Below, one piece after another: positions 2,070 through 35,944 of a DNA stretch of 42,855 nt. Below the pieces are notes generated by a model that did not search any database, was not told where the DNA came from, and was given only the letters and a program-made list of their open reading frames with translations. How positions within the stretch are numbered: the stretch's first letter is position 1; every line of letters starts with the position of its first letter. A program made the position numbers and the translations under genes. The stretch is from Phycisphaerae bacterium (GTDB lineage Bacteria; Planctomycetota; Phycisphaerae; UBA1845; Fen-1342): positions 1-42,855 of the forward strand of contig JASFQK010000048.1 in NCBI GenBank assembly GCA_050115495.1, written 5' to 3'.

Positions 2070-2141
<72 letters not shown>

Positions 2142-2683: not shown

Positions 2684-2734
2684 TGGGCCTCCGGACCCTG
2701 CCCGGGTCCATGGGCCACCAAATGACGACTGACC

Positions 2735-18576: not shown

Positions 18577-18623
18577 GGTTGGCCACAGATGCCGCTCTCA
18601 CCTCCGACTCAATTCGCTTCGCT

Positions 18624-20096
18624 CTACAACGCTGACGCGACGCGTCGGAAGTGGTATCCGATGATCGCGAGCGTCATCGCCTCCGGGAATGCGCGGCGGT
18701 GGAAGAGCAGTGCCTTCGTGAGGAACTTCCAGTACTGGCGTCGGCCGCGGCTCAGGATACCCATGACCCACAGCGATTTGATGAACGCCTTCACGTCGCG
18801 CCAGGACAGGTGAATGCCTTGCCCCTGCGGACGATACTCACGCAGGAACGTGAGGATGCGCCGATAGTACATCCTCGGCGTGTAGAGGCGCTTGACAAGC
18901 GAGCGGTAGCCCTCGACCAATATTTCGCGATCGAGCTTGGGGACGAAATTCAGGTTGGCCTCGACGTTGTTTCCGCTCGCGTCGTGGAGGATGCGGCCCT
19001 CCTGTTTGAGCCGTGAGAAAAGCCGCGTGCCCGGCAGCGCCTGGAGCAGACCCACCATGGCCGTCACCACGCCGGCCTCCTGGATAAACCTGATCTGCCG
19101 CTCGAAGATGTTGGGCTTGTCGCTGTCGAACCCGACGATGAAGCCACCCATCACCTCGAGACCCGATTTTTGGATCGTCTTTACGGCGCTGAGCATGTCG
19201 CGCTTCGCATTCTGGACCTTTGCGCACTCGAGCAGGCTTTCCTCCTGCGGCGTCTCGATCCCGACGAAGACCTTCTTGAAGCCCGCGCGGACCATCAGTT
19301 CCAACAACTCCCCATCGTCCGCCAAGTTCAACGAGGCCTCGGTCGTAAACTGTAAACGGACATCGCGACGCCGCTCCCACGCGATGAGCTCGCGAAGAAA
19401 CTCCTTTACCTTGGCTCTGTTTCCAATGAAGTTGTCGTCTACGATGAATATCGGCCCCGTCCAGCCCGCGTCCACGAGGCTTTCCAGCTCGCCGATCATC
19501 TGCTCGTTGGTCTTCAGACGCGGAACTCGGCCGTTCATCACGATGATGTCGCAGAACTCGCAATTGAATGGGCAACCGCGCGAAAACTGGAGCGGCATCG
19601 TGGCATAGTGCTTGAACTTAATCAGATCCCACCGCGGTACCGGCGTCTGCCGTATGTCGGGCCGCTTCTCGCGACGGTAGAACTCCTTGAGGTCGCCAGA
19701 CACCATGTCGGCCACGAGCTCGGGCATGATGTCCTCCGCCTCGCCGAGGACGAAGTGTTTCACTTCGGGGAAGCCCGCGTGGCCGGTGGTAAACAGGGGC
19801 CCGCCCGCGACGACGGTCTTGCCCAGCTGGCTGCATCGGGCGATGACCTCGCGCGCGGAATCCACCTGCGCGAGCATGGCCGAGATGAAAACGCAATCCG
19901 CCCACGCGAGTTGCGCGCCGGTGAGCGATGTGACATTGAGATCGACGAGCTTGAGGTCCCAGCGCTTCGGGAGCATCGCCGCCACGGTCAACAGGCCCAA
20001 CGGCGGAAAACACGCCTTCTTGGAGATGAACGACAGGACGTGCTTGTAGCTCCAGAAGGTGTCCGGCGTAGCAGCGGAAACCAGCAACACTCTCAT
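18624..20096 (-). CDS. B12-binding domain radical SAM protein (DUF4070-type)
   Basis: N-terminal PPLGLLTVAAML B12-binding region, CPFNCEFC motif, IVDDNFIG; GAGGTG RBS before ATG 20096. Confidence 0.92.
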   Translation of the reverse strand: MRVLLVSAATPDTFWSYKHVLSFISKKACFPPLGLLTVAAMLPKRWDLKLVDLNVTSLTGAQLAWADCVFISAMLAQVDSAREVIARCSQLGKTVVAGGPLFTTGHAGFPEVKHFVLGEAEDIMPELVADMVSGDLKEFYRREKRPDIRQTPVPRWDLIKFKHYATMPLQFSRGCPFNCEFCDIIVMNGRVPRLKTNEQMIGELESLVDAGWTGPIFIVDDNFIGNRAKVKEFLRELIAWERRRDVRLQFTTEASLNLADDGELLELMVRAGFKKVFVGIETPQEESLLECAKVQNAKRDMLSAVKTIQKSGLEVMGGFIVGFDSDKPNIFERQIRFIQEAGVVTAMVGLLQALPGTRLFSRLKQEGRILHDASGNNVEANLNFVPKLDREILVEGYRSLVKRLYTPRMYYRRILTFLREYRPQGQGIHLSWRDVKAFIKSLWVMGILSRGRRQYWKFLTKALLFHRRAFPEAMTLAIIGYHFRRVASAL

Positions 20097-20272
20097 CGCA
20101 CAACACCTCACGCGCAGGGGACCCAGCGGACGCAGCGTGTCCGCCAATCCGGTTCAGACTTCCATCCGTCGCCGCAACCACCGATCGGGAACGCCCGTCC
20201 TGGGCGGGGCAGGTGCAGGCGGAACTCGACTTTTCCGTTTTGTGTTTTCGTCAATGCCATCCGGCCTTTCTC

Positions 20273-20707
20273 TTAGTCGCGTTTCACCAGGTCGCGGACC
20301 ATCGGATGGTCCGCCAACTGACCAGCCTCAAGCCGCATTAGATTGCCCTCGAGTCCTTGAAGGAGTCCGTTTGACAATCTGGGGCGGAATCTGCGCAGCA
20401 CTCCGAGCATTCGTGGTGTGGCGAGTATCACCAAGCGACCAATCTTGTGCGTGTCGACTCGCTTCTTTAGCCAACCCACGATCTGTCCGGCAAAACGTCG
20501 CTCTTTCTCCTCGACGTCATGTGTCATTCCGTCCCCGGTCTGCGGCCGCAGGTGCTCACTGTCGGGGAACGTGTTCTCGAGCGCGTCATACTCGTCAACG
20601 TGTTGCGTACCTTGCTCAGTTAAGCGGCAGCACAAGAGCCGGCAATGCTCGGCGTCCGCCAGGGCAAACCACGCGTGGTTTCGTCGTTCGACCTTCGTCT
20701 TACCCAT
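20273..20707 (-). CDS. Host attachment family protein (baeRF12-like release-factor-related fold)
   Basis: Pattern WFALADAEHCRL...RRFAGQIVGWL...RLVILATPRMLGVLR is typical of the family; GGAG RBS. Confidence 0.75.
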   Translation of the reverse strand: MGKTKVERRNHAWFALADAEHCRLLCCRLTEQGTQHVDEYDALENTFPDSEHLRPQTGDGMTHDVEEKERRFAGQIVGWLKKRVDTHKIGRLVILATPRMLGVLRRFRPRLSNGLLQGLEGNLMRLEAGQLADHPMVRDLVKRD

Positions 20708-20725
20708 CGGTGTTCTCCTTGCAAC

Positions 20726-20926
20726 TCAACCTGCATCCGGTCTGCCACCGGCGCAAGTCCATTCCCACACTACCCAACGACGGACATGGAAATCGTCACC
20801 GGCCTCCAAGTCCAGCTTGCCGGTCCCGTCACGAACCTCGAGCACCGTATTCTCGATAACGCGCTCGACGCCGTTGGCGCGTCCGACAACCGCGGATTCG
20901 CGGTTCCTGCTCGCCAAGACCAACGT
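20726..20926 (-). CDS. csrA: CsrA-like carbon storage regulator, divergent, with ACG (or TTG at 20923) in place of ATG; possibly a pseudogene
   Basis: (M)LVLASRNRESAVVG...NTVLEVRDGTGKLDLEAGDDFHVRRWVVWE follows the CsrA pattern MLVLSR..ES.VIG...ITVLEV....VKLG.EA...V.VHR.EV; GAGG RBS; 66 aa. Confidence 0.65.
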   Translation of the reverse strand, partial: TLVLASRNRESAVVGRANGVERVIENTVLEVRDGTGKLDLEAGDDFHVRRWVVWEWTCAGGRPDAG

Positions 20927-20942
20927 GGCAGAACCTCTATTT

Positions 20943-21362
20943 CTATGATTGCTCGCCCGGTTTACTCCCGCTCCAGGTGTCCGCAGGTACGCTATGGGCG
21001 AGCTGGTACACCTGTACTGTGTTGCCGGTCGTGAAGACTCCCACCACGGTGCCGGTAGTCGGCTCGACTTCCGCGGTGGCCTCACGAACCTCCACGCCGG
21101 TGATCCGCTTGATCTCCTGCCGCAACGACTCGGAGGCGTTGGCGAACAACTGTCGGTGAAAGTCCTGTATCTGCGCGGCACCCTCGGGGCTTTTCGCCAC
21201 CGCCCGCTCGGCCTCCGACAAGGCCCCGTGCAGCGTGATCACCAGCGTGGTGTCGCTCAGCACCACGGTCACGGACTTGGGCGTGTTACCCGTCCGTTGC
21301 TGCTCGAAAAGACAGGCCGCCTGTGCAATCTGGCGCGCCATCTCTGAATTGGGCTTGTCCAT
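20943..21362 (-). CDS. DUF2294/MpsC-family protein, type B copy 1
   Basis: FEQQRTGNTPKSVTVVLSDTTLVITLHGALSEAE...EIKRITGVEV; AAGGAG RBS; paralog of 29153-29563. Confidence 0.85.
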   Translation of the reverse strand: MDKPNSEMARQIAQAACLFEQQRTGNTPKSVTVVLSDTTLVITLHGALSEAERAVAKSPEGAAQIQDFHRQLFANASESLRQEIKRITGVEVREATAEVEPTTGTVVGVFTTGNTVQVYQLAHSVPADTWSGSKPGEQS

Positions 21363-21403
21363 GGCGTTTCTCCTTGGACGCGGCGGCCGTCCACGACTGC
21401 CGC

Positions 21404-21555
21404 AAACAAAAAAGCCGACATGGTTAAAGATCCTCAGGGGCTCAACCACGTCGGCTTGCTGTTCAACGAGCCTCCCGGCCGGGCCGGGTTGCTCTTCGCT
21501 TGGCCATCCGACTCGAATCGTGATCGGAGCCGAATCCAACATCGCCCGCGGCTCC
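21404..21555 (-). ncRNA. Conserved structured 5' leader/attenuator, copy 1
   Basis: GGAGCC..GGCTCCGATC hairpin; TCGGATG; GAGC-AA-CCCGG-N5-CCGGG-AG-GCTC hairpin; TGA-7 nt-GCCGACGTGGTT...AACCATGTCGGC-T6 terminator. Confidence 0.85.
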
Positions 21556-21605
21556 GTACATCTTCTGCTGGCCGCATGAATGCCGACCAGCATCTACAGC
21601 GCAGG

Positions 21606-21929
21606 TTACGAGCGGATACGCTCCCTCGGAACAGAAGGCGTGACCGCCCGCTGGGCCACCTGGCCCAGTTCCGCCAACCCGTGTTTTCCTTCTTCCGCTC
21701 GGCGTCGTCCGTTTCCGTCCGTCAGCGGCAAGACGCCGGCCATCTCTCCGATCACATTGACCAGTTCACAGCCTGACGGCACGACGATTTTGGCATTGTG
21801 GCTCAGTGCATTCTCGAGAGCCTCCAGCTTCCTCAGAAGCTGCGCGTTCCCGACAATCCTGATGCCCGAGAAAAAGATCAGTACCGGAACGACAACTACG
21901 AAGATCACTGCATACACGATCGGATCCAT
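21606..21929 (-). pseudogene. SPFH/band-7 family gene with in-frame internal deletion
   Basis: N-terminal TM plus SGIRIV is fused directly to an SPFH-like C-terminus (GNAQLLRKLEALENAL..NAKIVVPSG.ELVNVIGEMAGVLPL); the band-7 core is absent. Confidence 0.6.
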
Positions 21930-21961
21930 AAGACGGTCCTTTCACATCAGTGTCGTGAAGT

Positions 21962-22228
21962 TCATGCGTGCGAGGCCGAGCGTCGGATGGCATGCCAGAC
22001 TACCAGGAATACCACCGCCCCGACCACCGCGACCAGGAGGCTCCAGAGATTGAAGCCCGTCGCGCCGTTCGCTCCGGCCGCGTTGAAGATCCAGCCGCCA
22101 ATCACCGCACCGACGATGCCGAGCAGAATGTCAAACGCGAGTCCCTCGCCGCGCTTGTTCACCAGCGTGCTGGCGATGTAGCCGGCGATAAGCCCCAACA
22201 CGATCCAGCCGATTACGCCCATGACCAT
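21962..22228 (-). CDS. GlsB/YeaQ/YmgE family (transglycosylase-associated) stress membrane protein
   Basis: IGWIVLGLIAGYIAS...DILLGIVGAVIGGWIF...SLLVAVVGAVVFL; GAGGAG RBS immediately after the leader terminator. Confidence 0.92.
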   Translation of the reverse strand: MVMGVIGWIVLGLIAGYIASTLVNKRGEGLAFDILLGIVGAVIGGWIFNAAGANGATGFNLWSLLVAVVGAVVFLVVWHAIRRSASHA

Positions 22229-22241
22229 GGCTTGACTCCTC

Positions 22242-22390
22242 AAAAAAAAAGCCGACGCAACAGAGCACCGTAGAGTGCTCGATCACGTCGGCATACTTTT
22301 CATCGGGCCGCCCGGAAAACCCGGAGTGCCCTTTATTCAGTCATCCGATTTACGTGCCGATCGGAGCCGCCTCGCAGTTCGGGTGGCTCC
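22242..22390 (-). ncRNA. Conserved structured 5' leader/attenuator, copy 2
   Basis: Same architecture: GGAGCC..GGCTCCGATC; TCGGATG; GGGC-AC-TCCGG-N5-CCGGG-CG-GCCC; TGA-7 nt-GCCGACG...CGTCGGC-T9. Confidence 0.85.
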
Positions 22391-22403
22391 ACTCAGCGAC
22401 CGG

Positions 22404-22431
22404 AGTATAACACGCCGGGGAAGGAAAGCAA
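22404..22431 (-). promoter_or_regulatory. Sigma70-like promoter for leader copy 2
   Basis: TTGCTT-16 nt-TATACT with a TG extended -10, just upstream of the leader's first hairpin. Confidence 0.6.
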
Positions 22432-22588
22432 CTGGATTCCCGGACCGGTCCTGATACGATGCCTCTCAGGCCACCCGGAAGGCAAGGCCGCCGGGTGCGT
22501 GCTCAGCGGGTCTGGCGGACCAGGAACCGCGTTTTCAGGCCAGAATCGCCGGTCGTCTGTCCGCCCCTTTTGCAGTTGGTGAGGCCTC

Positions 22589-22969
22589 ATGAAAACCCAA
22601 GGCGAAATCGAAGCCGCCATTTCCCAGGGGATCGGTCGCTTTGAACAGGAATTCATGGGCCGGGGCCCCAAGAACATTCAAACCCATCTGATCGGTGATC
22701 TGCTCGTGGTCCGCCTCCAGGGTGTATTGACCGCGGCCGAACAGCACCTGGTCAAGTCGCTTCCAGGTGAAAAGGGCCGGGACCTGCTCAAACAGGTCAG
22801 GACCCAGTTGATCGAAACGGCGCGGCCGATGATCGAGGCGATGGTCCAGGAGATCACCGGGGTCCGCGTAGCGAGCCTCCACCACGACGTCAGCACCGCC
22901 AGCGGCGAAGAGGTCGTGATCTTGAGCCTGACCGATTCGCCTCTTACACGCGCAACAAAGAGACAATAG
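22589..22969 (+). CDS. DUF2294/MpsC-family protein, type A copy 1
   Basis: MKTQGEIEAAIS...MGRGPKNI...LLVVRLQGVLTAAEQHL...SLHHDVSTASGEEVV. Confidence 0.92.
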   Translation: MKTQGEIEAAISQGIGRFEQEFMGRGPKNIQTHLIGDLLVVRLQGVLTAAEQHLVKSLPGEKGRDLLKQVRTQLIETARPMIEAMVQEITGVRVASLHHDVSTASGEEVVILSLTDSPLTRATKRQ

Positions 22970-23174
22970 CCTCCTCGACAGAGCGTGCGGATCGTGTCAG
23001 CCTCAGGACGTTCACAGGCAGCCATGACGCTGCACGACCTGCGCGGAAGTCGCGCTTGCGCAGGGCGCGCTGCCAGTGGAAGGATGACAGCATGAGCCAT
23101 CTCTTGTTACACACGACTTGGCCAGCCGATTCCCTTGATGAATCAGCGGCCGGGTCTACAGAAGGAGTCTGAAC

Positions 23175-23768
23175 ATGAAGCTGGTCATCAGGATGTTTCT
23201 CACCGGGCTGGCCGCCGTTCTGCCGGTCATGGTGACGCTGTATGTGCTGTATTGGCTGGGCAGCACGGCGGAGGCGTTTCTGGGCGGGGGACTGAAGATG
23301 CTGATCCCGGACAGCCTGTACTGGCCGGGGATGGGCGTCGCGGCCGGGCTGGCCTTGGTCTTCGTGATCGGCGCCCTGATGAAGGCATGGCTCTTTCGAA
23401 AGGTGTTTCGCTGGGGCGAGCGGCTGGTAGGGCGAATTCCCCTGGTGAAGGCGCTGTATGGGGCCGTGCGCGACCTGATGGGCTTCTTCTCGGGCTCCGA
23501 CACAAAGGCGATGCGCAGGGCCGTCATGGTGACCGTTGGCAACACTCCCCTACGCCTCATCGGCTTCATCACGCGCGAGGACTTCGGCGACCTGCCGGCC
23601 GGGATCGGCGGCGACGACACCGTGGCGGTCTATCTGCCCATGAGCTACCAGATTGGTGGTTTTACGGCGATGGTCCCGCGCTCGGCGATCCAACCTGTCG
23701 ACATGTCCATCGAGCAGGCGATGCGGTTCGCCGTCACTGCGGGGATGGGCGAGGTGAAGGAAGGATAG
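23175..23768 (+). CDS. DUF502 family membrane protein
   Basis: FLTGLAAVLPVMVT, RIPLVKALYGAVRDL, VAVYLPMS, MSIEQAMRFAVTAG; AAGGAG RBS. Confidence 0.9.
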   Translation: MKLVIRMFLTGLAAVLPVMVTLYVLYWLGSTAEAFLGGGLKMLIPDSLYWPGMGVAAGLALVFVIGALMKAWLFRKVFRWGERLVGRIPLVKALYGAVRDLMGFFSGSDTKAMRRAVMVTVGNTPLRLIGFITREDFGDLPAGIGGDDTVAVYLPMSYQIGGFTAMVPRSAIQPVDMSIEQAMRFAVTAGMGEVKEG

Positions 23769-23846
23769 GCAGGGCAGTATGCACGGTTCTACCGCGCTAC
23801 GGCGCGGGCCAAGGGTCACTTGCGGCCCGAGTCGTTCGTGTTCCTC

Positions 23847-24974
23847 TCAGGTTCCATGGGCCTCGCCCGGCCGGGTGTCGATTTCGCCCATCTTCTTGTG
23901 GATTCGTTCGATACCCACGCGGACCTTCTCAAGGAAGCGATCGATTTGCTGTTCCGCGCCCGGCGGCGGAACACTCCATTCCGCCAGCACGTCGGCGAGT
24001 TCGAGCACGAACTCTGCCAGCCAATCCTCCTCATGAAGCCGAACCTCCTCCAGCACTTGCAGGTACACCTTTTCGGCGCGGCGAAACTCCGCGCTTGTTT
24101 CCGGCACCGTACAGACGATGCGATGGAAGTCGTCTACCGCAGCGGCCAGCCGCTTCATCTTGGCCGCAACCGCGCGTTCGCGCTCGATCAGCCTGCGGGT
24201 CACCAGACCATCTTCGTGCCCCTCATTGGCACCGACGATGTCCCGGCGGATCTTCTCTAGCCCGGGCTCATCGAGCAAACGCGGGTGGGCTACATGGATG
24301 GCGGAAAGCCGGCGCAACAACTTGGCCGCAGCCTCCGCATCTCCGCGCCGTGCCGCTGCGAGGGCGTCCCGCGCCATCGTGCCGATCTGGCCGCGGAACT
24401 CCTCCAGTCGCGCTCGCAGCTTCTCGATTCGTTGTTCGTACCGCTCCAGGTCGGAGGCGGAGATGATCCTGCCAGTCTTCTCGCGCAGCGTCCGCATTTG
24501 CTCCAACGTGGCACGCGCTGCATCCTCGTCGCCGCCCTTTAGGGCTTCGCCAAGGTCCTCAACCAACTGGCGGTATGCCACCTGATCCGGGTCAGGTGGT
24601 GGCGGAGTAGGATCTGGCGGGACCCGCCGCGCTTCGGGTCGGTACTCCGGATCGGCGTCGGGACTCGTTCGCCAGCCGGGTTCGTCAGGCCGGGATGCCG
24701 AAGGGCGATATTTCGAGGGCGGCCTCGACGACGGCTGGGCTCGTTGTTCACTCTGCTGCTCGCGCTGAAGTTCGGCCCGGCGCCGCTCCAACTCGGCTTG
24801 GACCATGCTCAGCAACTGCGCATCAGCCCGTACATCCCGGTCCTGTAGCGCCCGCGCAGTAATCCGCTCCAGTGAAGACAGATCCCGGCATTCGCGCATG
24901 ATCAAGGACCGCCATTTTTGCAGGGCGGCGTCGCGTTGTTTCGCGGTCAGGTCCTCAGACATCGGGGCTTCCAT
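23847..24974 (-). CDS. Hypothetical alpha-helical/coiled-coil protein with Pro-rich linker
   Basis: Long ORF with coding-like composition directly downstream of enzyme I; start at 24974 or 24962. Confidence 0.75.
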   Translation of the reverse strand: MEAPMSEDLTAKQRDAALQKWRSLIMRECRDLSSLERITARALQDRDVRADAQLLSMVQAELERRRAELQREQQSEQRAQPSSRPPSKYRPSASRPDEPGWRTSPDADPEYRPEARRVPPDPTPPPPDPDQVAYRQLVEDLGEALKGGDEDAARATLEQMRTLREKTGRIISASDLERYEQRIEKLRARLEEFRGQIGTMARDALAAARRGDAEAAAKLLRRLSAIHVAHPRLLDEPGLEKIRRDIVGANEGHEDGLVTRRLIERERAVAAKMKRLAAAVDDFHRIVCTVPETSAEFRRAEKVYLQVLEEVRLHEEDWLAEFVLELADVLAEWSVPPPGAEQQIDRFLEKVRVGIERIHKKMGEIDTRPGEAHGT

Positions 24975-25011
24975 TCCAGTCGAGCCGCCGGCGCGGGCAC
25001 GGAAGTGACCC

Positions 25012-26724
25012 TCAACATCCGTCCGAAATACTGCCACAAAAAGGCGCCAGAAGCCGCCGCGCCTCGCCGGGCGTGCTGCAGCGTAGCGATTGGATCGCGA
25101 CTTCTTCCGTCTCGCGGGAGCTTATGCCGCGGAGCATCTTGCGGACGCCGTCGCCTCGAGTGGGGCTCATGCTCAATTCGCGCACGCCCAGGCCGACCAG
25201 CAGGCAGGCGAAAGCCGGGTCCGCAGCATCCTCGCCGCAGACGGAGACCGGGCGACCGCGCGCCTGGGCCGCGGCCACAATCTGCTTGATGGCCCTCAGC
25301 ACGGACGGATGATGGACCGTGTATTCGCTGGCCAGGTCGGGGGCATCCCGGTGGACGGCGAGCATGTAGTGGGTCAGGTCGTTTGTACCAATGGCCACGA
25401 AGTCGGCCAACTCGAGAATCTCCTCCAGCGCAAACAGCGCCGCCGGGGTCTCAACCATCGCGCCCACCTGCGGCCTCTGCTTGCCGCCCACCTGCGCGAC
25501 CGCGACGGTCAGTGCCTCGCAAGCACGCCTCAGGTCGTCGCCGCCGACCACCATGGGAAAGAGCACGCGGACGTCTCTGCCCTGGGCTGCGTGGGCGATG
25601 GCCTGCAACTGCGTGTCGAGGAGGTCTCGTTCAGTCAACGAGAACTGCAGGCCTCGGAGCCCCCAGGTGACGGCCTTCTTGTGTTCAGCCGCCAGGAACA
25701 AGGGGACTTTCTCGTCGCCGAAATCGAAGGTCCGGATGACCAATGGCCGGCCGTTCAGCGCATCGGCCACCTGCTCATAGATTTCCACCTGAGCCGCATA
25801 GCTCGGCCGTTGCGGCGCTTCGAGGAAAAGGAACTCCGTCCTGAACAATCCCACACCCTCGAAATGATGCACGCAAGCCTGTTTCACCTCTTCCGGTCGT
25901 TCGATATTCGCGAGCAGCGTAACCTTGATCCCGTCTCGCGTGACGCACGGCTGCGCCCCGAGGTCAGCCACGGTTGTCTGCACACGATCGTGCTGGTGTT
26001 TCCGCTCGCGGAAGTGCTGCATCTCCGCTTTCGTGGGAGCGAGGGTCACCTCACCCGAAACCCCATCGACGAGCAGGTGCATCCCGGGCCGGATGTGGGC
26101 GGTGACCTCTGAGATGCCCACCACCGCCGGAATCCCGAGAGAACGAGCGACGATCGCGGTATGGCTGGTGTCGCTTCCAAGCTCGGTGACGATTCCAGCC
26201 AGGCCGCTGTGCGCGAATTCCAGGGCTTCCGATGGGAGCAATTCACGTGCGGCGACGATGGAGCCGGGCGGCAAGGGCGCGGCAGCCCGGGACCGGTCCC
26301 CCGCGAGATGCCCAAGCATCCGCCGTCCCACGTCGCGGACGTCCTGCTCTCGCTCACGAAAATAGGCATTTTCGAGTCCGCCGAGTCGCTGGGCCAGCTC
26401 CTTAACTACCTCATCGACGGCCTGCTCGACGTTGACCTCTTCCCGCGAAACGTACTCTCGTACTCGAGATGCGATCTCCTGGACCAGCCGGGCGTGAAGC
26501 TGAGAGATGTCGGAGGCGTCGCGGGGGGCGGCCTCTCCCGCCCGCTCCAGTTCAGTGCGGGAGCGCTCGACCGCCTCCTCCAACCGCTTATGCTGGTCGT
26601 CGATCTCCGCTTGCGGGATCGCATACCGTGGGATTTCGAGCCTGGGGTGGACCTCGTAGTCGTAAACGACTGCGGTGCCCTCGACGTATCCGGGCGAAAC
26701 GGGTTTACCCTTGAGGACGGACAT
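25012..26724 (-). CDS. ptsI: Phosphoenolpyruvate-protein phosphotransferase (PTS enzyme I)
   Basis: Phospho-His motif TSHTAIVARSLGIP, GVGLFRTEFLF, AIGTNDLTHY, VSVCGE; no N-terminal GAF domain; GAGGTG RBS. Confidence 0.92.
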   Translation of the reverse strand: MSVLKGKPVSPGYVEGTAVVYDYEVHPRLEIPRYAIPQAEIDDQHKRLEEAVERSRTELERAGEAAPRDASDISQLHARLVQEIASRVREYVSREEVNVEQAVDEVVKELAQRLGGLENAYFREREQDVRDVGRRMLGHLAGDRSRAAAPLPPGSIVAARELLPSEALEFAHSGLAGIVTELGSDTSHTAIVARSLGIPAVVGISEVTAHIRPGMHLLVDGVSGEVTLAPTKAEMQHFRERKHQHDRVQTTVADLGAQPCVTRDGIKVTLLANIERPEEVKQACVHHFEGVGLFRTEFLFLEAPQRPSYAAQVEIYEQVADALNGRPLVIRTFDFGDEKVPLFLAAEHKKAVTWGLRGLQFSLTERDLLDTQLQAIAHAAQGRDVRVLFPMVVGGDDLRRACEALTVAVAQVGGKQRPQVGAMVETPAALFALEEILELADFVAIGTNDLTHYMLAVHRDAPDLASEYTVHHPSVLRAIKQIVAAAQARGRPVSVCGEDAADPAFACLLVGLGVRELSMSPTRGDGVRKMLRGISSRETEEVAIQSLRCSTPGEARRLLAPFCGSISDGC

Positions 26725-26840
26725 AGAGCACCTCGTCCAACGGTCATTGAAGACGCGCGGCAGCGCCAACTCAAGGGGGATGAAGTCGCTCCGCGTGCGC
26801 CAGACCTCCCGGCCGGGTGAGGCCTGTCAAGCCACAGAAG

Positions 26841-27671
26841 TCATCCCGCATCCGCATGGTACGCGGCAACGGCTGCCCCGACCTTCGCGATGAGATCGGC
26901 GTCCTTGTAGGGCTTTGCCAGAAACTCCACCGGCCCAATCCCGGCAAAGCGCTCCATGACGTGCTCTTCATTGTACCCGCTGAGAACGACGACCGACACC
27001 GCGGGCCGGATGCCCCGCATTTCTCGGTGCACCTCCTCCCCGCCCAGATCGGGCATTGTCAGGTCGAGCAGCACAGCGTCGATCTGTTCATGGTGTTCAC
27101 GGAACGTATCGAGCGCCGCGCGGCCACCATCGGCGGTCAGGACATCGAATCCGGCGCGCTCCAATATCTGCTGAGCCACCAAACGGACGAGATCTTCGTC
27201 GTCCACCACAAGCACCGTGCCGGTCCTGTACGGCATCGCCGACGTCGGCTCCTCGGCGATAAGGCGCACCAGAGGCTGCTTCGACGCCGGAAACAAGACC
27301 CGGAAACACGTTCCCTGTCCGGGCACGTTGCGCACTTGGAAAGCCCCGCGATGTCCGCGGACGATCCCCTGGGCCGCGGCCAGCCCCAAGCCCCGGCCGG
27401 TGAACTTCGTCGTAAAAAACGGGTCAAACATCTTCGCCTGGGTCTCGGTATCCATGCCGCAGCCGGTGTCCGCAACCTCGACGAACACGTAGAGCCCCTC
27501 GGGCACGTCTTCCTCGTGCGGCATCTCGGCCAGGAGAGCACTATCCGCGTCGATAACTCCGATGCGAACGGTCACCGAGCCCCCCGTGTCGCCGATCGCT
27601 TCCGCCGCATTCATGACCAGATTCATGACCAGTTGCCGGAGCTGGGTGGCGTGCGCTATTGCCATCTGCAT
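26841..27671 (-). pseudogene. 5'-truncated hybrid histidine kinase (HATPase_c + receiver only)
   Basis: N box QLVMNLVMNA, G1 DTGCGM, F box FDPFFTTK, G2 GRGLGL, then REC (VLVVDDE, LLDLTMP, FLAKP). No H-box/HisKA or sensor upstream. Confidence 0.8.
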
Positions 27672-27733
27672 TGCGAAGCGTTGAGGAGGCGGCGGACACG
27701 GAGAACACAGGCACGGCTGAGGTTGCGCAGGCC

Positions 27734-28120
27734 ATGATGACCGACGAGAAAGCCCAGTTACTCGCGCTGCCTGAGCATCGCGGAACGTGGTGTCGTGATG
27801 CCGAAGCACGCGATGCCAGCGGCAACGCGGTGACCTACGACGACGCTATGGCGGTTGCGTGGGATATCACCGGCGCGATCTGCCGACTGTTCGGTTGGCA
27901 GCGGGCGAGCGTGCTCTTCGGGCAGGTGAAACGGCACCTCATGGACAAGCGAAGGTCCGTTGGCTGGCCCCCGCGTGACACCGGCATGGAAGCGGTGATA
28001 ACGCTACAGGATTTCAACGACCGAGCCGACACCACGTTCGACCGGCTGCAAGAGCGCCTTGAGGCGATGCCAGTGTGGAGCAGCGGGAGTCGCACGAGTA
28101 AGTCAGCCGCGGAGGCATGA
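27734..28120 (+). CDS. Hypothetical protein
   Basis: 128-aa ORF with globular composition and GAGG upstream; no family recognised. Confidence 0.65.
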   Translation: MMTDEKAQLLALPEHRGTWCRDAEARDASGNAVTYDDAMAVAWDITGAICRLFGWQRASVLFGQVKRHLMDKRRSVGWPPRDTGMEAVITLQDFNDRADTTFDRLQERLEAMPVWSSGSRTSKSAAEA

Positions 28121-28213
28121 GCTGCCGGCCCGTGGTCACTGTGCGTGCCGGGACGAGCTTAGCTTCCTTGGATATCGACGTGTTGCGATCGAACCACCAC
28201 TAACGGAGTCAGA

Positions 28214-28450
28214 ATGGCGAAGACACGACCATTTGTTCAGAAGCGGCAGCGTGAAATAGACAAGGCAGCGAAGGCGGCGCAGAAACGGGAACGCCGCCAG
28301 AACGCACGGAGGACGGTGATTCACCGCCGACCGACGGTGGGAGTGGGCCGAAATCCAGAAGCAGCGGCGCCGACGAGTAGTACGATGCGCGCTTCCCCCA
28401 GTGGGCGCATTATTACTTGGACTTCTTGTCGCGGAAGACGGGCGAGGTAG
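28214..28450 (+). CDS. Small basic protein (KRQRE..K..K..KRERR type)
   Basis: GGAG RBS; Lys/Arg-rich helical N-terminus; 3' end overlaps the convergent gene. Confidence 0.55.
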   Translation: MAKTRPFVQKRQREIDKAAKAAQKRERRQNARRTVIHRRPTVGVGRNPEAAAPTSSTMRASPSGRIITWTSCRGRRAR

Positions 28451-28805
28451 CCAGGGTAAAGAGCACAACCTCTTCGCCGGTCTGGGTGCTGATGTCGTGG
28501 TGCAGGCTGACGATTTTCACGCCGGTAACCTCCTCGACCATCGTTTCCAGCACCGGCCGGGCGGTTTCGATGAGTTGCGTTCGCACCTGCTTGAGCAGCT
28601 CGCGTCCTTTCTCTGCCGGGAGTGATCCGACCAGTTGCTGCTCAGCCGCGGTCAGGACGCCGTGGAGCCGGACCACGAGCAAGTCGTCGATAAGGTGGGT
28701 GTGGATGTCCTTCGGGCCTCGGCCCATGTAGTCCTGCTCGAAGCGGCGGACGCCGTCGCAGATTCCGGCTTCGATTTCGCCCTGAGTTTTCACCGTCGCA
28801 TCCAT
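28413..28805 (-). CDS. DUF2294/MpsC-family protein, type A copy 2
   Basis: KTQGEIEAGIC...MGRGPKDI...SLHHDISTQTGEEVV; close paralog of 22589-22969. Confidence 0.92.
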   Translation of the reverse strand: MDATVKTQGEIEAGICDGVRRFEQDYMGRGPKDIHTHLIDDLLVVRLHGVLTAAEQQLVGSLPAEKGRELLKQVRTQLIETARPVLETMVEEVTGVKIVSLHHDISTQTGEEVVLFTLATSPVFRDKKSK

Positions 28806-28909
28806 CTATCCAAAAACGCCGGCCAAACGTCCCTGTGGGATACCGTGCGCATGTGCGCCTCATCATCCGCTGGCTGGCAGGCGGCCACGGCTCAACCGCG
28901 GAAACCCAC

Positions 28910-28937
28910 TTGCTATCCATGGCCTAGCCGGTATGAT
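28910..28937 (+). promoter_or_regulatory. Sigma70-like promoter for leader copy 3
   Basis: TTGCTA-16 nt-TATGAT; shares TTGCTwTCCwT with the promoter at 22404-22431. Confidence 0.6.
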
Positions 28938-28947
28938 AATTGGCATT

Positions 28948-29105
28948 GGAGCCAGCGCGAAGCCCGCGTCTGGATCCGATCGCGCTTGGACGCGAATACG
29001 TCGGATGGCGATTTGAAGGGCAGCCCGGCCGCCCCGGGAGGCCCGTTGACGAGTAAGCCGATGTGGTCGAGTACCTCTGTGTGCTCGGCCACATCGGCTT
29101 TTTTT
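28948..29105 (+). ncRNA. Conserved structured 5' leader/attenuator, copy 3
   Basis: GGAGCC..GGATCCGATC; TCGGATG; GGGC-AG-CCCGG-N5-CCGGG-AG-GCCC; TGA-7 nt-GCCGATGTGGTCGAGTAC...GTGCTCGGCCACATCGGC-T7. Confidence 0.85.
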
Positions 29106-29152
29106 GTGCCACCAACAACAAGGACGGCAGCGGCCGGCGAGGATGGATTCCA

Positions 29153-29563
29153 TTGAACCAGCCCAAGTCGAACAAGGCGGAGCAGATTGCTGCGGCGGCC
29201 AAGTCGTTCGAACAGGAGCGCACCGGCCACCGGCCCAAGTCGGTGACCGTGGTTCTGAGCGACGACGCGTTGGTCATCACGCTGCATGGCGCCTTGTCGG
29301 AGGCCGAGAAGGCCCTGGCCAAGGACCCCAACGGCGCTGCCAAGGTGCAGGAGTTTCACCAGCAACTCTTCGCGAGCGCCGCGGGGAGCCTCCGGACGGA
29401 GATCGAACGGATCACCGGCGTAAAGGTGCGCGAGGCGACAGCAGAGATCGAGCCGAGCACCGGGACCGTAGTCAGGGCCTTCGCGAGCGGCACCGTGGTG
29501 CAGGTGTTCCTGCTCGCGGGCAATGTCGAGACGGACGTGTGGAGCAATGACCGGCCCACCTGA
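29153..29563 (+). CDS. DUF2294/MpsC-family protein, type B copy 2 (TTG start)
   Basis: FEQERTGHRPKSVTVVLSDDALVITLHGALSEAE...; start inferred by alignment with 20943-21362 and a GAGGA RBS. Confidence 0.85.
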   Translation: MNQPKSNKAEQIAAAAKSFEQERTGHRPKSVTVVLSDDALVITLHGALSEAEKALAKDPNGAAKVQEFHQQLFASAAGSLRTEIERITGVKVREATAEIEPSTGTVVRAFASGTVVQVFLLAGNVETDVWSNDRPT

Positions 29564-29692
29564 ACCGTATAGGCCGGAAAGTGATGCTCTCTGGAGGGAG
29601 AGATGCCTGGGATTGCGGTCGGGGTGCGCGTTGCCCGTTCGGGACGCTCGCTCGGCCGCGGTGGACACACGAAGTCGAAAGGATGGTGGCAG

Positions 29693-29977
29693 ATGTTGTC
29701 TGTGACGAAGCCCGCGCTCAAACGGCTGTCCCGTAGGCTGGTCCGCAAGGGCGCTGCCGACGGAATGGCGCTGCGATTCAAACGTCGAGAGGGCGGCTGG
29801 ACGCTGCGTGTGGAACACGAATCTCCCGGCGATACCGCGTTCAGCCACGATGGTCGGACGGTGCTCTTGCTGGATGCGGAAGTATCGAAAGCGATGGCGG
29901 ACATGACGCTGTACGCGCGAAAGGTCGGCCAGCGTTCGCAACTCAAGCTGCGCCGCACCGAGCGCCGCGGAGACTAG
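29693..29977 (+). CDS. HesB/IscA-like fold small protein lacking cysteines
   Basis: MLSVTKPALKRL...ALRF...PGDTAFSHDGRTVLLLD pattern; AAGGA RBS. Confidence 0.6.
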   Translation: MLSVTKPALKRLSRRLVRKGAADGMALRFKRREGGWTLRVEHESPGDTAFSHDGRTVLLLDAEVSKAMADMTLYARKVGQRSQLKLRRTERRGD

Positions 29978-29980
29978 ACG

Positions 29981-31927
29981 GTGGAGCTACCGCGACGATC
30001 CCGCGACGATGTTTACCTGCCGGACGGGGAATTCCGGCGGCGTGTCCGCGCGCTACAGCAACTGAAGCATGCGCACGATCTGCGGATCGGCCTGGTTTAT
30101 GCGTTCGATTTCCGTACGCGCATGCTGCCGTTCTGGTACGCTGACAAACGCATGGCGCCGTGCTCGGTTCGTCTGCTGGCGGATGTGCTGCACGAGGCCG
30201 GCTTCACCAATCTCCGCATCGTCTTGCAGCAATGGTCACCGAGGGTCCTGCCCAGCCGGATGCGACTGAACGGCAAGCCGCTCGATATCCTGCTGGTCTC
30301 CTCCATGCAGGTGCATGCGAAGCCTGCGTACGAATTAGTGCGCGACGCGCATCAAATGGGCGATGGCCGTCCGTTGATCCTGGCCGGCGGCCCCAAGGCC
30401 GTTTATGAGCCGACCGACTTCTTCGAGATCGGTCCAGGGCCGGGGGGCGGCGCCGATTGCGTCGTCACCGGCGAGGCTTTCGTACTCCTGGACCTGCTGC
30501 ACACAATCCTTGCTGACCAGCATCCTCGTCGGACCGCACGCGACGCATTCGAGCAGGCCCGGTTGACGGGCAGGCTCAGTAGCGTTGCGGGGCTGGTCTA
30601 CTTATCGCCGGACGCGACTACCTGCGAGCCGATCGCCGTCAATACCGGTGTTCAGCGGCTGCTGCGCGACCTCGATGAATACTCGCTACCCGATGCCGGC
30701 TATCGCATGCTCGAGCCGCCACACCGCCGGCGGACGCTTGCCGCACGGCCGTGCGCGCCGCGACGCGTCGGGAGGCTCTCGCCCATTGCCTCGGTAATCG
30801 CGACACAGGGTTGCCGCTTCAACTGCCCATACTGTCCGATTCCCGCGGTCAATCAGCGAACCTGGCGGCACAAGAGTCCGCAGCGCCTCGCAGCTGAGAT
30901 CAAGCATATCTACGAGGACTTCGGCATACGCGAGTTCTTCGGGACCGATGACAACTTCTTCAACAATCGCGACTCGGTTGAGTCGTTGATGTGCGAGCTT
31001 GGCCGGACCACCACGGGCGGCGTTCCGCTCGGTAAGCGGATCAAGTTCTACACGGAGGGCACACAGGCGGATGTCTTCAAGAACCGGGATCTGCTGCCCA
31101 TGTGTCGCAACGCCGGCCTGCGCGGCATCTGGTTCGGGATCGAGGACCTCACCGGCAAACTCGTGAAGAAAGGCCAGAGCGCCGACCGCACGGAGCAGCT
31201 CTTCGCGCTAATGCACCGGCTCGGCATACAGCCGCACGTCATGATGATCCACAGCGACTCCCAGCCGTTGCGCTCACCGCCGGGTGACCTCTCCGGTCTC
31301 TTAAACCAAGCGCGTTACGTGTTCGACCAGGGCGCGGTCAGTTACCAGTGCACCTACCTGGGGCCGGCGATTGGCACGCGGAACCTGGAGCCGGCGCTGA
31401 CTTCCGGTGGCGTCTATCGGCAAGTGGGCGGGAAGCCCGTGCCAAACGCCTTCCAGGATGGCAACCACGTCGTCGCATCGCACCACCCGCGTCCCTGGCA
31501 GCAGCAGTTGAACCTGCTGCGCGCCTACGTCAGCTTCTACAACCCGATCAATACCGTCCGCGCCCTGCTGGGCATTCGCAAGGACTCGGTTTCTCCGAAA
31601 CGATTCGTACATCAGTTCATCGGGCAGATCGGTTTATTCCTGACGATACCGAGAATGCTGGCATGGGCTTGGCGACTCAGGCGTGGCCCGATCAAGCCAT
31701 ACCGCGGCCTGGCCGAGGCCCGCATCCCCATGGTGGACGCCGCCAACGGGCGGGAGATCAACTGGGCAATCGAGCACCTTGCGTCCCCGGCGTTGGCATC
31801 AACACAGCCCAGTGCCGCGACCGGTCTGGCTGCGCCGTACGAACCCACACCAGAACTGACATTTCGGCAAGTGGGGCTCCATCGTGGCGCGGATTCGCGC
31901 CTGGTGACATCGAAGGGGAGCCGCTGA
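29981..31927 (+). CDS. B12-binding domain radical SAM protein
   Basis: LILAGGPKA, VVTGEA, TQGCRFNCPYC, FGTDDNFF, IWFGIE. Confidence 0.9.
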   Translation: MELPRRSRDDVYLPDGEFRRRVRALQQLKHAHDLRIGLVYAFDFRTRMLPFWYADKRMAPCSVRLLADVLHEAGFTNLRIVLQQWSPRVLPSRMRLNGKPLDILLVSSMQVHAKPAYELVRDAHQMGDGRPLILAGGPKAVYEPTDFFEIGPGPGGGADCVVTGEAFVLLDLLHTILADQHPRRTARDAFEQARLTGRLSSVAGLVYLSPDATTCEPIAVNTGVQRLLRDLDEYSLPDAGYRMLEPPHRRRTLAARPCAPRRVGRLSPIASVIATQGCRFNCPYCPIPAVNQRTWRHKSPQRLAAEIKHIYEDFGIREFFGTDDNFFNNRDSVESLMCELGRTTTGGVPLGKRIKFYTEGTQADVFKNRDLLPMCRNAGLRGIWFGIEDLTGKLVKKGQSADRTEQLFALMHRLGIQPHVMMIHSDSQPLRSPPGDLSGLLNQARYVFDQGAVSYQCTYLGPAIGTRNLEPALTSGGVYRQVGGKPVPNAFQDGNHVVASHHPRPWQQQLNLLRAYVSFYNPINTVRALLGIRKDSVSPKRFVHQFIGQIGLFLTIPRMLAWAWRLRRGPIKPYRGLAEARIPMVDAANGREINWAIEHLASPALASTQPSAATGLAAPYEPTPELTFRQVGLHRGADSRLVTSKGSR

Positions 31928-32415
31928 TGGACAATCCGGAACCCACGGCCTACGACCGCGCCGAATCCGAAGAGATCGCCACACAGATTCAGATCGAACT
32001 GAGGCTATTGCTGAGTATTGAGCGGTCGCTACGAACCACGCTCCAGTGGATGACACGTGAACGCGGTAACACCCGCAAACTCTCGACCCTTCGCTCCGTA
32101 GCCCGTTCGTTCGAGCGGCAGCTCAGCCGCACACGGGTGCTCGCCGACCAGCCGGGCTACCTGCATCTGATCACCGCCGCGACGCCGGAACTGACGAGTG
32201 AAGTTCAGGAATTGCGAAGAGCCCGCGAAACGCTGAAAGCCGGCTTTGAGGGCATCGTTCTCCGGCTGGAGTACGTCTCGCCGGATAACGCCGATGCGCT
32301 CCAGCGAGTCTGTGCCGAGCTTGAGCGCTATCTTGACGATTTGAACGCCCACGGCCGGAAGGAACTGAAGCTGCTGCGACGCTCACGCAGCCGGGAGACA
32401 GACGCACCCGGATGA
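31927..32415 (+). CDS. Helical-bundle protein, degenerate hemerythrin-like
   Basis: TGATG coupling to the upstream gene; four-helix pattern ending LNAHGRKELKLL; most metal-ligand His residues appear substituted. Confidence 0.6.
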   Translation: MDNPEPTAYDRAESEEIATQIQIELRLLLSIERSLRTTLQWMTRERGNTRKLSTLRSVARSFERQLSRTRVLADQPGYLHLITAATPELTSEVQELRRARETLKAGFEGIVLRLEYVSPDNADALQRVCAELERYLDDLNAHGRKELKLLRRSRSRETDAPG

Positions 32416-32425
32416 ACGCGTCTAC

Positions 32426-33958
32426 ATGGGAACCATCGATCTTCCAAGCTGCCGATACAGAAATCCACGCAGCCCAAGCTCGATTCACTCGGTGCACGTG
32501 CATAGCGAAAGGACTACGACCATTCGCATATACCTGATAAACCCCCGCAACCCTCTGGCGGGTCTGACCGATCTGAAGGGTAGCCGCTGGAATCGCTACC
32601 GCGTCTGGAAGCCTCTGGGTCTTCTTACTCTCGCGGCCCTGACTCCTGCGGAATGGCAGATCACGATCTTCGACGAGAACATTCGCATGCCGGAGTACGA
32701 GAAGCTGCCGCGCCCGGACTTGGTCGGCGTGACCGCGTTCACGTCGCAGGCAAACCGCGCGTACGAACTCGCCGCCGAGTTTCGCGAACGCGGCGTTCCG
32801 GTCGTCATGGGTGGTATTCACGCCACGATGTGCCCGGACGAAGCCGCGGCCCGCGTTGATTCGATTGTGACGGGCGAGGCTGAGCAGGTCTGGGGCCAGG
32901 TCCTCGACGATGCCAGACATGGTGCCTTGCAGCCCCTTTATGAGGGTACGCACGCGACAATGGACGCGATGCCGCCGGCCCGCCACGATCTGCTCGCCGG
33001 CGACTACGCGTTTGGGTCGATCCAGACAACGCGCGGTTGCCCACTCAATTGCAGTTTCTGCAGCGTGACGTCCTTTAACGGATTCCGCTATCGCCAGCGG
33101 CCCATCGCCGACGTTGTTCGGGAGTTTGGCCTGATTCGCGAGAAGCTGGTGTTGGTCGTCGACGACAACCTGATCGGCACGAGCCAAGCGCACATCGCCC
33201 GCAGCAAGGAGCTGTTGCGTGCCATGATCCAGGCCAAGCTGCACAAGCGCTGGATCGCGCAGGTCACGATCAACATGGCCGACGACGATGAGCTGCTGGC
33301 GCTCGCCGCCCGCGCCGGATGCGCTGGTGTGTTCATCGGCTTCGAGTCGCCGACGGTCGCGGGCCTCAAGGAGGTCGGCAAGAAATTCAATCTGCTCAAT
33401 GGCCGGGACCTGGCGGCGTCCGTGCGTCGCATCCAACGTCACAAGATCCTGGTCGTCGGTTCGTTCATCATGGGACTGGATACCGACGAGCCGGGCATTG
33501 GCGCTCGAATCGCCGCTACGGCGACCCGCTACGGCGTGGACATCATGAACACGCTCTTTCTCACGCCGCTACCGGGCACGCGGTTGTGGGACGACCTGGA
33601 ATCGCAGGGCCGCATCGCCACCGACGGGTTTCCGGAAGATTGGCGGTATTACACGCTCACGTTCCCGGTCGCCCGCTATCGGCAGTTCACGCGTGCCGAC
33701 CTGGCCCACGAGATGGAAACGTGTGACGGGACGTTCTATTCCTTGCGGAACATCCTTCGCCGCGCCTGGGACAGCCTGTGGCACCGTCGCCGACCGGTGA
33801 TCTCGATCGTGGCCAACCTCTCTTACCGCAAGAACCTCCGCCAGAGTCAGAGGAGCTGCCGCGACTTCCTGGCGACGCGGCGTGCAACAAGCGTGGGACG
33901 GGCGTCCCCGCCCGTCGATCCCCGTGTGCCACTGCTTTCAAGCAGTGCGTCGGGCTGA
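32426..33958 (+). CDS. B12-binding domain radical SAM protein
   Basis: KPLGLLTLAALTP, VVMGGIHAT, TRGCPLNCSFC, VVDDNLIG. Homology begins at IRIYLINP (ATT at 32522 after AAGGA), so the true start is uncertain. Confidence 0.9.
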   Translation: MGTIDLPSCRYRNPRSPSSIHSVHVHSERTTTIRIYLINPRNPLAGLTDLKGSRWNRYRVWKPLGLLTLAALTPAEWQITIFDENIRMPEYEKLPRPDLVGVTAFTSQANRAYELAAEFRERGVPVVMGGIHATMCPDEAAARVDSIVTGEAEQVWGQVLDDARHGALQPLYEGTHATMDAMPPARHDLLAGDYAFGSIQTTRGCPLNCSFCSVTSFNGFRYRQRPIADVVREFGLIREKLVLVVDDNLIGTSQAHIARSKELLRAMIQAKLHKRWIAQVTINMADDDELLALAARAGCAGVFIGFESPTVAGLKEVGKKFNLLNGRDLAASVRRIQRHKILVVGSFIMGLDTDEPGIGARIAATATRYGVDIMNTLFLTPLPGTRLWDDLESQGRIATDGFPEDWRYYTLTFPVARYRQFTRADLAHEMETCDGTFYSLRNILRRAWDSLWHRRRPVISIVANLSYRKNLRQSQRSCRDFLATRRATSVGRASPPVDPRVPLLSSSASG

Positions 33959-34002
33959 CCCCATTGTGAAAACGCACTGCTCAAGAGCAGTGGCACACCG
34001 TC
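33888..34002. repeat. Composite REP-like palindromic element, copy A
   Basis: GTGGGACGGGCGTCCCCGCCCGTC plus GTGCCACTGCTTTCAAGCAGTG...CACTGCTCAAGAGCAGTGGCAC; similar copy at 42303-42425. Confidence 0.75.
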
Positions 34003-34019
34003 AGTGCTACCCGCCCCCT

Positions 34020-35444: not shown

Positions 35445-35474
35445 TTCGTTTCATTCCCACCAAACGCCACTGCG

Positions 35475-35804
35475 CTACGCTCCCACGGTCGCGCTTGCCG
35501 TCTCGCTCCACGGTCCCTTCTGGCCGGTCGTGCTGACCCAACGGAGCATGTAATGGGCCGTCTTGCCCGCGTCGGCGCCGTCGAAATCCGTCGTATACGG
35601 CGTGCGCGTATCGACCGCCAGGAACGTCAACTCCTTCGGGTCCGCGGGCAGCGGGTTTTGATCAAAGCCGCGACCGTGAGCGAGCGGTCGACCCCGCATG
35701 GCAAGGTTGTTCACGTATCGCTCTGACCGCTTACTTACGTGCGCGGCTCTGATTGCTTCGGCGCCCATCACGCCGTCCGGCCCCGGCATGTAGTCGTTCG
35801 GCAT
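35475..35804 (-). pseudogene. Remnant of a fibronectin-III-like conserved hypothetical gene (internal deletion plus REP insertion)
   Basis: MPNDYMPGPD is joined to GVMGAE...ELTFLAVDTRTPY...HYMLRWVSTTGQKGPWSETASATVGA, the two ends of a normally longer family as I recall it. Confidence 0.55.
35661..35753. repeat. REP doublet (REPIN-like) inserted in frame
   Basis: ATCAAAGCCGCGACCGTGAGCGAGCGGTC and its imperfect inverted copy GACCGCTTACTTACGTGCGCGGCTCTGAT; 93 bp. Confidence 0.65.
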
Positions 35805-35944
35805 AAGCACACCCTGCTGTCAGAAGATTGGATTCAGACGCATCTATTGTCGGAACCTGTTCGGGGCTGTCAAGCGGGCGGACGCCCGAATCGGCGGCGG
35901 CATTATCGTGTCGGTCGGGCCGGCGCGGTCCGGAAAGCGACAAA

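Follow-up and report, generated by a model that had tools for sequence, protein, structure and literature searches.

In antitermination systems of the BglG, SacY, LicT and GlcT type, an irregular hairpin, the ribonucleic antiterminator (RAT), overlaps the 5' arm of an intrinsic terminator, expression is OFF by default, and the regulator gene often lies just upstream. ANTAR, GlpP and HutP are likewise small RNA-binding antiterminators, and ANTAR acts on multi-copy leaders genome-wide. Here we describe a locus of a Phycisphaerae bacterium (Planctomycetota; assembly GCA_050115495.1, contig JASFQK010000048.1, all 42,855 nucleotides (nt) of which we call the window) in which four genes of the DUF2294/MpsC family (Pfam PF10057), two of type A and two of type B, are arranged around three copies of a leader RNA that carries a terminator. 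The leader is a real, apparently undescribed RNA switch tied to DUF2294 and, because the pairing of gene and hairpin recurs in distant bacteria, DUF2294 probably works the switch in a gene-control system not described before. From sequence comparison, a protein-dependent transcription antitermination system appears moderately probable; it would work like BglG/RAT, ANTAR or GlpP antitermination but is, by the same comparison, a member of none of them.

The likeness to the BglG group lies in the hairpin, which is found here to overlap the 5' arm of the terminator, and in the upstream position of the regulator gene at the short-RNA loci described below. The differences are that neither the CAT RNA-binding domain nor the PRD is present, only PF10057 being matched, that the hairpin of the window is longer (about 65 nt) and has its own conserved loop, and that a degenerate paralogue lies inside the gated transcript. 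With ANTAR, GlpP and HutP the locus shares small proteins with a role, here predicted, in antitermination, and with ANTAR the multi-copy leaders; however, none of their Pfam domains was matched and the RNA is a single rod, not twin hairpins. Transcriptional ON riboswitches also use a P1-like helix that competes with a terminator, whereas this leader has no Rfam match and is tightly linked to an ungated protein gene. Among published motifs, Rhodopirellula-1 is comparable in being multi-copy, possibly cis-regulatory and found in Planctomycetes (and Proteobacteria), and it has no Rfam entry; in the part of that report consulted, however, its seven alignment rows and drawing, compared by eye, start with AAC, end with CGUU and lack both the basal loop and an overlapping terminator (Weinberg 2010, PMC2864571).

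All four proteins belong to PF10057, with 75–128 bits against a curated cut-off of 23 bits. A1 and A2 are 70% identical and B1 and B2 65%, with 29–34% between A and B, and in a quick tree (20 of 80 A rows and 20 of 87 B rows, with the deep forks left open) the two types form separate clades with Shimodaira–Hasegawa-like approximate likelihood ratio supports of 100 and 98. The initial annotation had recognized four DUF2294/MpsC genes in two subtypes, each A gene divergent from a leader and each B gene first after a terminator, and this description is borne out, the reading frames being open as placed. In the 5.97-Mb assembly, tblastn gives only these four DUF2294 matches, and a search with the leader profile finds three leader copies, all within the window.

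An iterated profile, run on 110 sequences (the window and 109 loci selected through DUF2294), detected 143 leaders in 95 of them, and 119 of the 139 near-complete leaders were aligned. In its 5' part the leader forms a rod, about 65 nt long, whose symmetric internal loops hold many conserved purine-purine positions; the basal helix of the rod and the 5' arm of the terminator share the same bases. Two-sided changes occur in 30 of 35 pairs of the hairpin fold and in 32 of 37 pairs of the terminator fold, levels reached by none of 500 shuffles, and in controls with slid structures the paired share drops from 90% to 30–49%. In predicted folding, the nascent RNA forms the hairpin helix in 110 of 116 full leaders and the complete RNA forms the terminator in 114, the latter favoured by a median of 9.75 kcal/mol; with a preference of about 10 kcal/mol for the terminator in the complete RNA, the computed default is OFF. 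The basal loop is conserved as GGNNGAY facing RUANRCC. A −10-like hexamer precedes 87 of 147 leaders (51 ± 6 in shuffles), mostly 50–80 nt before the core, and TTGCT hexamers are enriched at the corresponding distance further upstream. RNA runs hold small shares of the stretch as contigs of relatives, and these say nothing on transcript ends or expression.

Rfam returned no match at the gathering score in the window, at E ≤ 10 in the L1/L2 region, or in ten other loci. The published literature yielded no description of a leader-DUF2294 system, a search that left aside the supplements of later motif surveys, which could hold the RNA under another name; the consulted part of PMC7857571 has no relevant passage, and a term search of the main text of a preprint on a Bacillus subtilis transporter (10.64898/2026.09.08.750065) found none of ybcI, mpsC, terminator, leader or riboswitch.

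The geometry of gene and leader is conserved among relatives. Of 95 type A matches (four genes, including the two in the window, being counted twice as split matches), 87 are divergent from a leader no more than 600 nt away and none lies behind one. Among the 90 B genes whose upstream DNA is long enough, 79 begin at most 150 nt past the terminator, mostly at 40–50 nt. Among 149 sampled genomes of the class, the leader is matched in 24, and strongly in 21. It is carried by all 17 genomes with clade A, a half of the co-occurrence that is partly by construction because 16 of them supplied training sequences; all 12 with at least two strong leaders have A; and the leader is absent from all nine that hold only a distant DUF2294 clade. 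In a sample of 149 genomes of the phylum five have the leader: A is intact in two of them, a third has an interrupted A together with a B, a fourth only a distant DUF2294 gene elsewhere and the fifth no DUF2294. At one locus (L149, G281:C58:14812-15042), where a type A gene with an in-frame stop accompanies a weak leader and an intact B, the cassette is possibly decaying. The A-like gene thus behaves as a regulator gene would, co-occurring with the element without being gated by it, apart from five genomes with a lone leader that are considered below.

A second, shorter RNA accompanies the distant clade. At 11 of the 14 loci examined (17 were fetched, three being cut by contig ends), a shorter hairpin and terminator with the same basal loop stand in tandem behind the DUF2294 gene, followed by genes for PEPCK, DUF4914, argininosuccinate synthase and others. 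A model of this short RNA, built from five loci outside the class sample, gave four strong matches in the 149 genomes, each directly after a distant-clade DUF2294 gene, as well as two marginal matches, and missed five genomes with a distant-clade gene. The same core lies behind DUF2294 in Anoxybacillus, before SbtA, and in Acetoanaerobium, before a major facilitator superfamily (MFS) transporter. In metagenomes, a descriptor fixed on these occurs within 400 nt downstream of DUF2294 in 29 of 57 distinct loci, as against 0–1 in 20 shuffles (27 of 55 without two near-copies of the seed; many loci are kin). The descriptor is a crude regular expression, which misses L1 and L3 and has 16 chance sites in their own genome. 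Compared with shuffles, 33 of the 35 distinct short cores show better folding (median z −3.6), and at one pair of the core the bases vary (18 U-A, 11 C-G, 5 U-G, 1 mismatch). Most short-RNA loci show a single A-like gene, and the RNA starts as little as 6–13 nt past its stop codon. The co-occurrence of DUF2294 subtypes with the leader, which had been suggested as a check on the initial idea, therefore largely holds, in geometry, across genomes, in the match of a second RNA subtype with a second clade, in Bacillota and in metagenomes.

These observations bear on two other explanations of the linkage. Divergence from a promoter, the geometry of A and leader in 87 of the 95 matches, is typical of DNA-binding regulators, so that type A might regulate the divergent promoter while another factor works the RNA switch. 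We hold this to be quite improbable: elsewhere the gene is in tandem with the RNA and separated from it by as little as those 6–13 nt, the most strongly enriched upstream hexamers are promoter-like (longer palindromes were not searched for), and PF10057 is the sole Pfam match of each protein, with no DNA-binding domain. Alternatively, genes and leader could merely have been co-transferred on stress islands without any functional link, as might be suggested by the location of all copies of this genome in one probable island and by the patchy distribution in class and phylum. The constant spacing and orientation amid changing neighbour genes, and the recurrence of the pairing in Bacillota and metagenomes with another RNA, another arrangement and other targets, make this very improbable.

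In the antitermination system that we favour, transcription would begin at the promoter-like site 50–80 nt ahead, and the nascent leader would fold into the rod hairpin, whose basal helix competes with the terminator. Without the factor the terminator would win, leaving the default state OFF. Type A DUF2294, presumably made outside the gated transcript, would bind the basal loop through conserved basic residues and hold the hairpin, allowing read-through at every leader copy in the genome. Both partners are small, a protein of 126 residues and a hairpin of 65 nt. Type B would be made only after read-through and, more tentatively, may be a partner that does not bind RNA and damps A. Binding of the loop by A would be the simplest account of a gene that is never gated, of two RNA subtypes that go with two protein clades, and of hairpins that vary from 33 to 64 nt and keep little but the small basal loop.

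The same three facts argue against a leader that is a protein-free ON riboswitch or an ion or pH sensor (for bicarbonate, CO2, Na+ or alkaline pH), to which DUF2294 would be linked only via the same physiology, as does the restriction of multi-copy leaders in the class sample to genomes with A. The many conserved purine-purine positions in the internal loops, the lone leaders in five genomes without DUF2294 and the inorganic-carbon theme common to the targets of the short RNA would all suit such a sensor, and so would the 1.7–2.5-fold fall of mpsA transcripts in 5% CO2 given in the part of PMC6689103 consulted. We consider this explanation possible but unlikely.

The residues of the proteins divide along the same lines. 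Type A proteins and the single DUF2294 proteins that precede the short RNA share R25, G26, R42, K68, R71, E76, R79, D100, S102 and E107, of which A1 keeps R25, R42, K68, R71, R79, D100, S102 and E107; they are replaced in B, and three other second copies behind a terminator also lack R25. Residue conservation, with the invariant basic residues of the family kept in A and lost in B, thus supports a predicted split into an active A and a degenerate B, and B would fit a modulator because it is made only after read-through and lacks the basic residues. We would put the chances at about even that B damps A rather than acting as a co-activator or in another role. B does have conserved residues of its own (H71, R72, R83, R88 in A1 numbering), DUF2294 is the first gene after 82 of 160 leaders, and second copies past a terminator recur in other lineages, which could mean that B alone, or an obligate A-B heteromer, is the active RNA-binding species, with positive feedback or repression as the outcome. 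Three class genomes (G049, G108 and G143) that have A and leaders and no B match, together with the single A-like gene at most short-RNA loci, render this improbable.

The fold predicted for A by AlphaFold2, with high confidence, is a helix, two strands, two helices and two strands, that of B being predicted less confidently. Foldseek gave no match at E ≤ 0.001, no sequence relative was found in the PDB, and the ESM Atlas returned only MpsC clusters. In a structure search of 48,161 chains no match stands out (best Z 6.5 for A and 6.9 for B), which does not show that the fold is new. The type II KH-like RbfA aligns to A over 88 residues with Z 5.4 and a root-mean-square deviation of 4.0, and to B with Z 5.1, values equalled by unrelated proteins.

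Several observations weigh against DUF2294 as the switch factor. Five genomes (89–99% complete; four of the class sample, one of the phylum sample) have a single leader and no DUF2294 match, one of these leaders lying at a contig end and one host genome being 99% complete, and three more genomes have weak leader matches without PF10057. Because the system is carried on islands, part of the co-occurrence is linkage, and related genomes do not count as independent. Two-sided changes number only one to three per pair in the switching helix, which is nearly invariant and draws most of its support from wobble-compatible changes. The proteins are not basic overall (median isoelectric point 6.4 for A). 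The descriptor is lacking in 28 of the 57 metagenome loci and in three of the 14 distant-clade loci, though several are near misses, and the shared core was not recognized in the hairpin before mpsA on a staphylococcal plasmid (L163). Finally, deletion of mpsC in Staphylococcus aureus had no effect on growth, according to the parts consulted of PMC6689103 and of PMC8552792, where it is restated. The initial proposal of DUF2294 as trans-acting partner of the leader, with A as antiterminator and B as feedback partner, is partly supported: it gains from the co-occurrence and from the A/B residue split and is left with the lone-leader genomes as exceptions.

MpsC is known from the staphylococcal mpsABC locus and has no defined biochemical role; the window proteins share its Pfam family, as does the B. 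subtilis PF10057 protein that served as a matching control; members of the family neighbour DabBA and SbtA. Since mpsC is dispensable for MpsAB (PMC6689103, as far as consulted), the Pfam name MpsC does not describe a function. As stated at the outset of the work, there is no mpsA- or mpsB-like gene in the window: none was found among the 41 open reading frames (ORFs) or ORF pieces scanned, and adjacent NuoL-like and DabA genes, the mark of an mpsABC/DabAB locus, do not occur there. DabA (PF10070) was not found in the genome, which is 92% complete, in a search in which two of 14 controls matched. On the staphylococcal plasmid, mpsA is immediately preceded by a hairpin that resembles a terminator and has a U run (L163:3453-3490).

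The genes behind the short RNA include those for SbtA, a NuoL-like protein with DabA, PurK, archaeal-type phosphoenolpyruvate carboxylase (PEPC), long NuoL-like proteins, DedA, P-type ATPases and monocarboxylate MFS carriers (the SbtA and PurK loci being in part near misses of the descriptor), and often handle bicarbonate or CO2 (SbtA, DabBA, PurK, PEPC, PEPCK). Inorganic carbon or pH is our leading guess for the input signal. In its widest form, the proposal would be that DUF2294/MpsC proteins are cross-phylum RNA-binding antiterminators that directly sense inorganic carbon (bicarbonate/CO2) or pH and gate SbtA, DabBA, PurK, PEPC and PEPCK, and that in Planctomycetota they were co-opted for a multi-leader general-stress regulon, in which a binding-dead paralogue made from the gated transcript serves as feedback decoy; such a design may have evolved repeatedly. 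This proposal is speculative, with a minor chance of being right as a whole. Were the antitermination system borne out, a widespread orphan family that now bears the misleading name of a transporter part would gain a function, and a new pair of antitermination protein and RNA would be added. It would also provide a handle on how heterotrophic bacteria regulate bicarbonate uptake and carboxylation genes, and reveal a planctomycetal stress regulon switched at terminators.

Some further loci of the family deserve mention. In L151, L152, L154, L156 and L216, DUF4914 takes the place of PEPCK after DUF2294 and is of similar length, for which reason it may be a PEPCK-like enzyme. In L230, L232, L234, L238, L239 and L262, the DUF2294 gene lacks the core, and a different conserved intergenic sequence stands between it and purC or a gamma carbonic anhydrase-like or carboxyltransferase-like gene. 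In L229, L254 and L265 DUF2294 lies ahead of CO dehydrogenase beta-like and pyruvate:ferredoxin oxidoreductase genes, which likewise represent a CO2-fixing step.

The features of the window are collected in Table 1. The arrangement had been described as a duplicated divergent module; the four genes and their positions stand, whereas there are three leaders and only module 2 is a simple A-leader-B unit. Module 1 has two leaders, since L1 precedes B1 while L2 faces A1 and leads to the GlsB/YeaQ-type gene and the 107-residue ORF. The modules are about 73% identical in nucleotide sequence, neither A1 and A2 nor B1 and B2 are sisters in the quick tree, and another genome carries both modules on a single contig, equally oriented and some 20 kb from each other (L032, L059). 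For these reasons the modules are, as judged from their sequences, old paralogous cassettes and not a recent inverted duplication.

Table 1. Leaders, genes and other features of the window
Feature	Position	Strand	Remarks
Type A gene A1 (DUF2294/MpsC)	22589..22969	+	PF10057, 122.5 bits; faces L2; AlphaFold2 predicted local distance difference test (pLDDT) 92
Type A gene A2 (DUF2294/MpsC)	28413..28805	-	PF10057, 128.2 bits; faces L3
Type B gene B1 (DUF2294/MpsC)	20943..21362	-	PF10057, 75.4 bits; first gene past L1 terminator
Type B gene B2 (DUF2294/MpsC)	29153..29563	+	PF10057, 83.1 bits; TTG start; first gene past L3 terminator
Leader L1	21406..21518	-	Rod hairpin overlapping intrinsic terminator, before B1; 91 bits with model R1, which was trained on it among others; z −3.3 (hairpin), −6.0 (terminator)
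Leader L2	22243..22353	-	Before GlsB/YeaQ-type gene; z −2.2 (hairpin), −6.6 (terminator)
Leader L3	28995..29106	+	Before B2; terminator stem 29055-29100; z −2.5 (hairpin), −9.7 (terminator)
Candidate promoter of L2	22404..22431	-	Sigma-70-like: TTGCTT, 16 nt, TATACT; read from sequence
Candidate promoter of L3	28910..28937	+	Sigma-70-like: TTGCTA, 16 nt, TATGAT; weak alone, since 1 site was found against 2.8 expected by chance
GlsB/YeaQ-type (Transgly_assoc) gene	21962..22243	-	PF04226; first gene after L2; start probably at downstream ATG; recurs behind leaders in 6 loci
107-residue ORF between L2 and L1	21606..21929	-	No Pfam or NCBIfam match; homologues in 7 of 80 loci
Host_attach/baeRF12 gene	20273..20707	-	Downstream of B1; family match
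B12-binding radical SAM protein with DUF4070	18624..20147	-	Probable target of module 1; homologue directly behind leader in L130
Giant protein, GH94/glucoamylase domains	9661..18576	-	Possible distal target; Pfam domains; co-transcription presumed
Small ORF after B2	29603..29977	+	No Pfam or NCBIfam match; homologues in 17 of 80 B loci
Radical SAM protein	29981..31927	+	Probable target of module 2; homologue behind partial leader in L134
B12-binding radical SAM protein	32426..33958	+	Domain match
Probable integrated island holding the whole system	2069..39200	.	tRNA-Gly 2069-2142 on the left; integrase fragment 2244-2711; copy of tRNA 3' half 39156-39200 on the right

The first gene after L2 is of the GlsB/YeaQ type, and the giant protein has the architecture of a cyclic beta-1,2-glucan synthase. 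Both modules had been said to run on into B12 radical SAM genes. These genes do lie on the same strand, but behind other genes, and the one at 29981–31927 has no B12-binding match at E ≤ 0.001. Only 20 of the 80 related B loci hold homologues of the radical SAM genes, which are therefore probably one target among many, and the link to B12 radical SAM is incidental. The wider scan took in 110 of 136 further candidates for the first ORF and, past B, 69 of 113 ORF candidates, many of them spurious and without a match. The families named among these putative targets of the long RNA are ferritin, Hsp20, GroEL, Transgly_assoc, BON, YflT, CsbD, DUF883, DUF1328 and DUF3309 proteins, as well as KaiC, CsrA, sigma-70 factors, sensor kinases, receivers, fatty-acid desaturase, squalene-hopene cyclase, glycosyltransferases and radical SAM enzymes, which in Planctomycetota we take to be mostly general-stress, envelope and signalling genes. 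Between the modules lie a gene for a phosphotransferase system enzyme I-like protein (25012–26769) and a kinase/receiver ORF whose 5' part looks truncated (26841–27809), close homologues of which flank a B gene in L067.

The nearest named relatives are Phycisphaerae, and no relative was found among viral contigs. The 216 proteins that a search of representatives gave at E ≤ 1e-30 came without gene context and were put to no further use. One locus (L069) is labelled 'Bacillota' at NCBI, a label that was set aside, as a sample of its phylum returned the same contigs as that of the window's phylum.

The probable island spans about 37 kb, with a G+C content of 62.5% against 66.7% for the genome, the flanks being low too. 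The tRNA 3'-half copy is 93% identical, with compensated T-arm changes, and a further copy is present on contig C85. Inside the island, 4182–9350 encodes a 1722-residue protein of the NACHT and HEAT-repeat type, possibly of defence or signalling, and near its right end a gene for an RRM protein (36229–36669) adjoins one for a DEAD-box helicase (36905–38341). A palindromic repeat of about 130 nt is present in two copies (33871–34003, at the end of the last radical SAM gene, and 42286–42425). The same 127-nt sequence stands, inverted, at both contig ends (1–127 and 42729–42855), and because it also occurs at the ends of more than 20 other contigs it is probably the end of a multi-copy insertion element.

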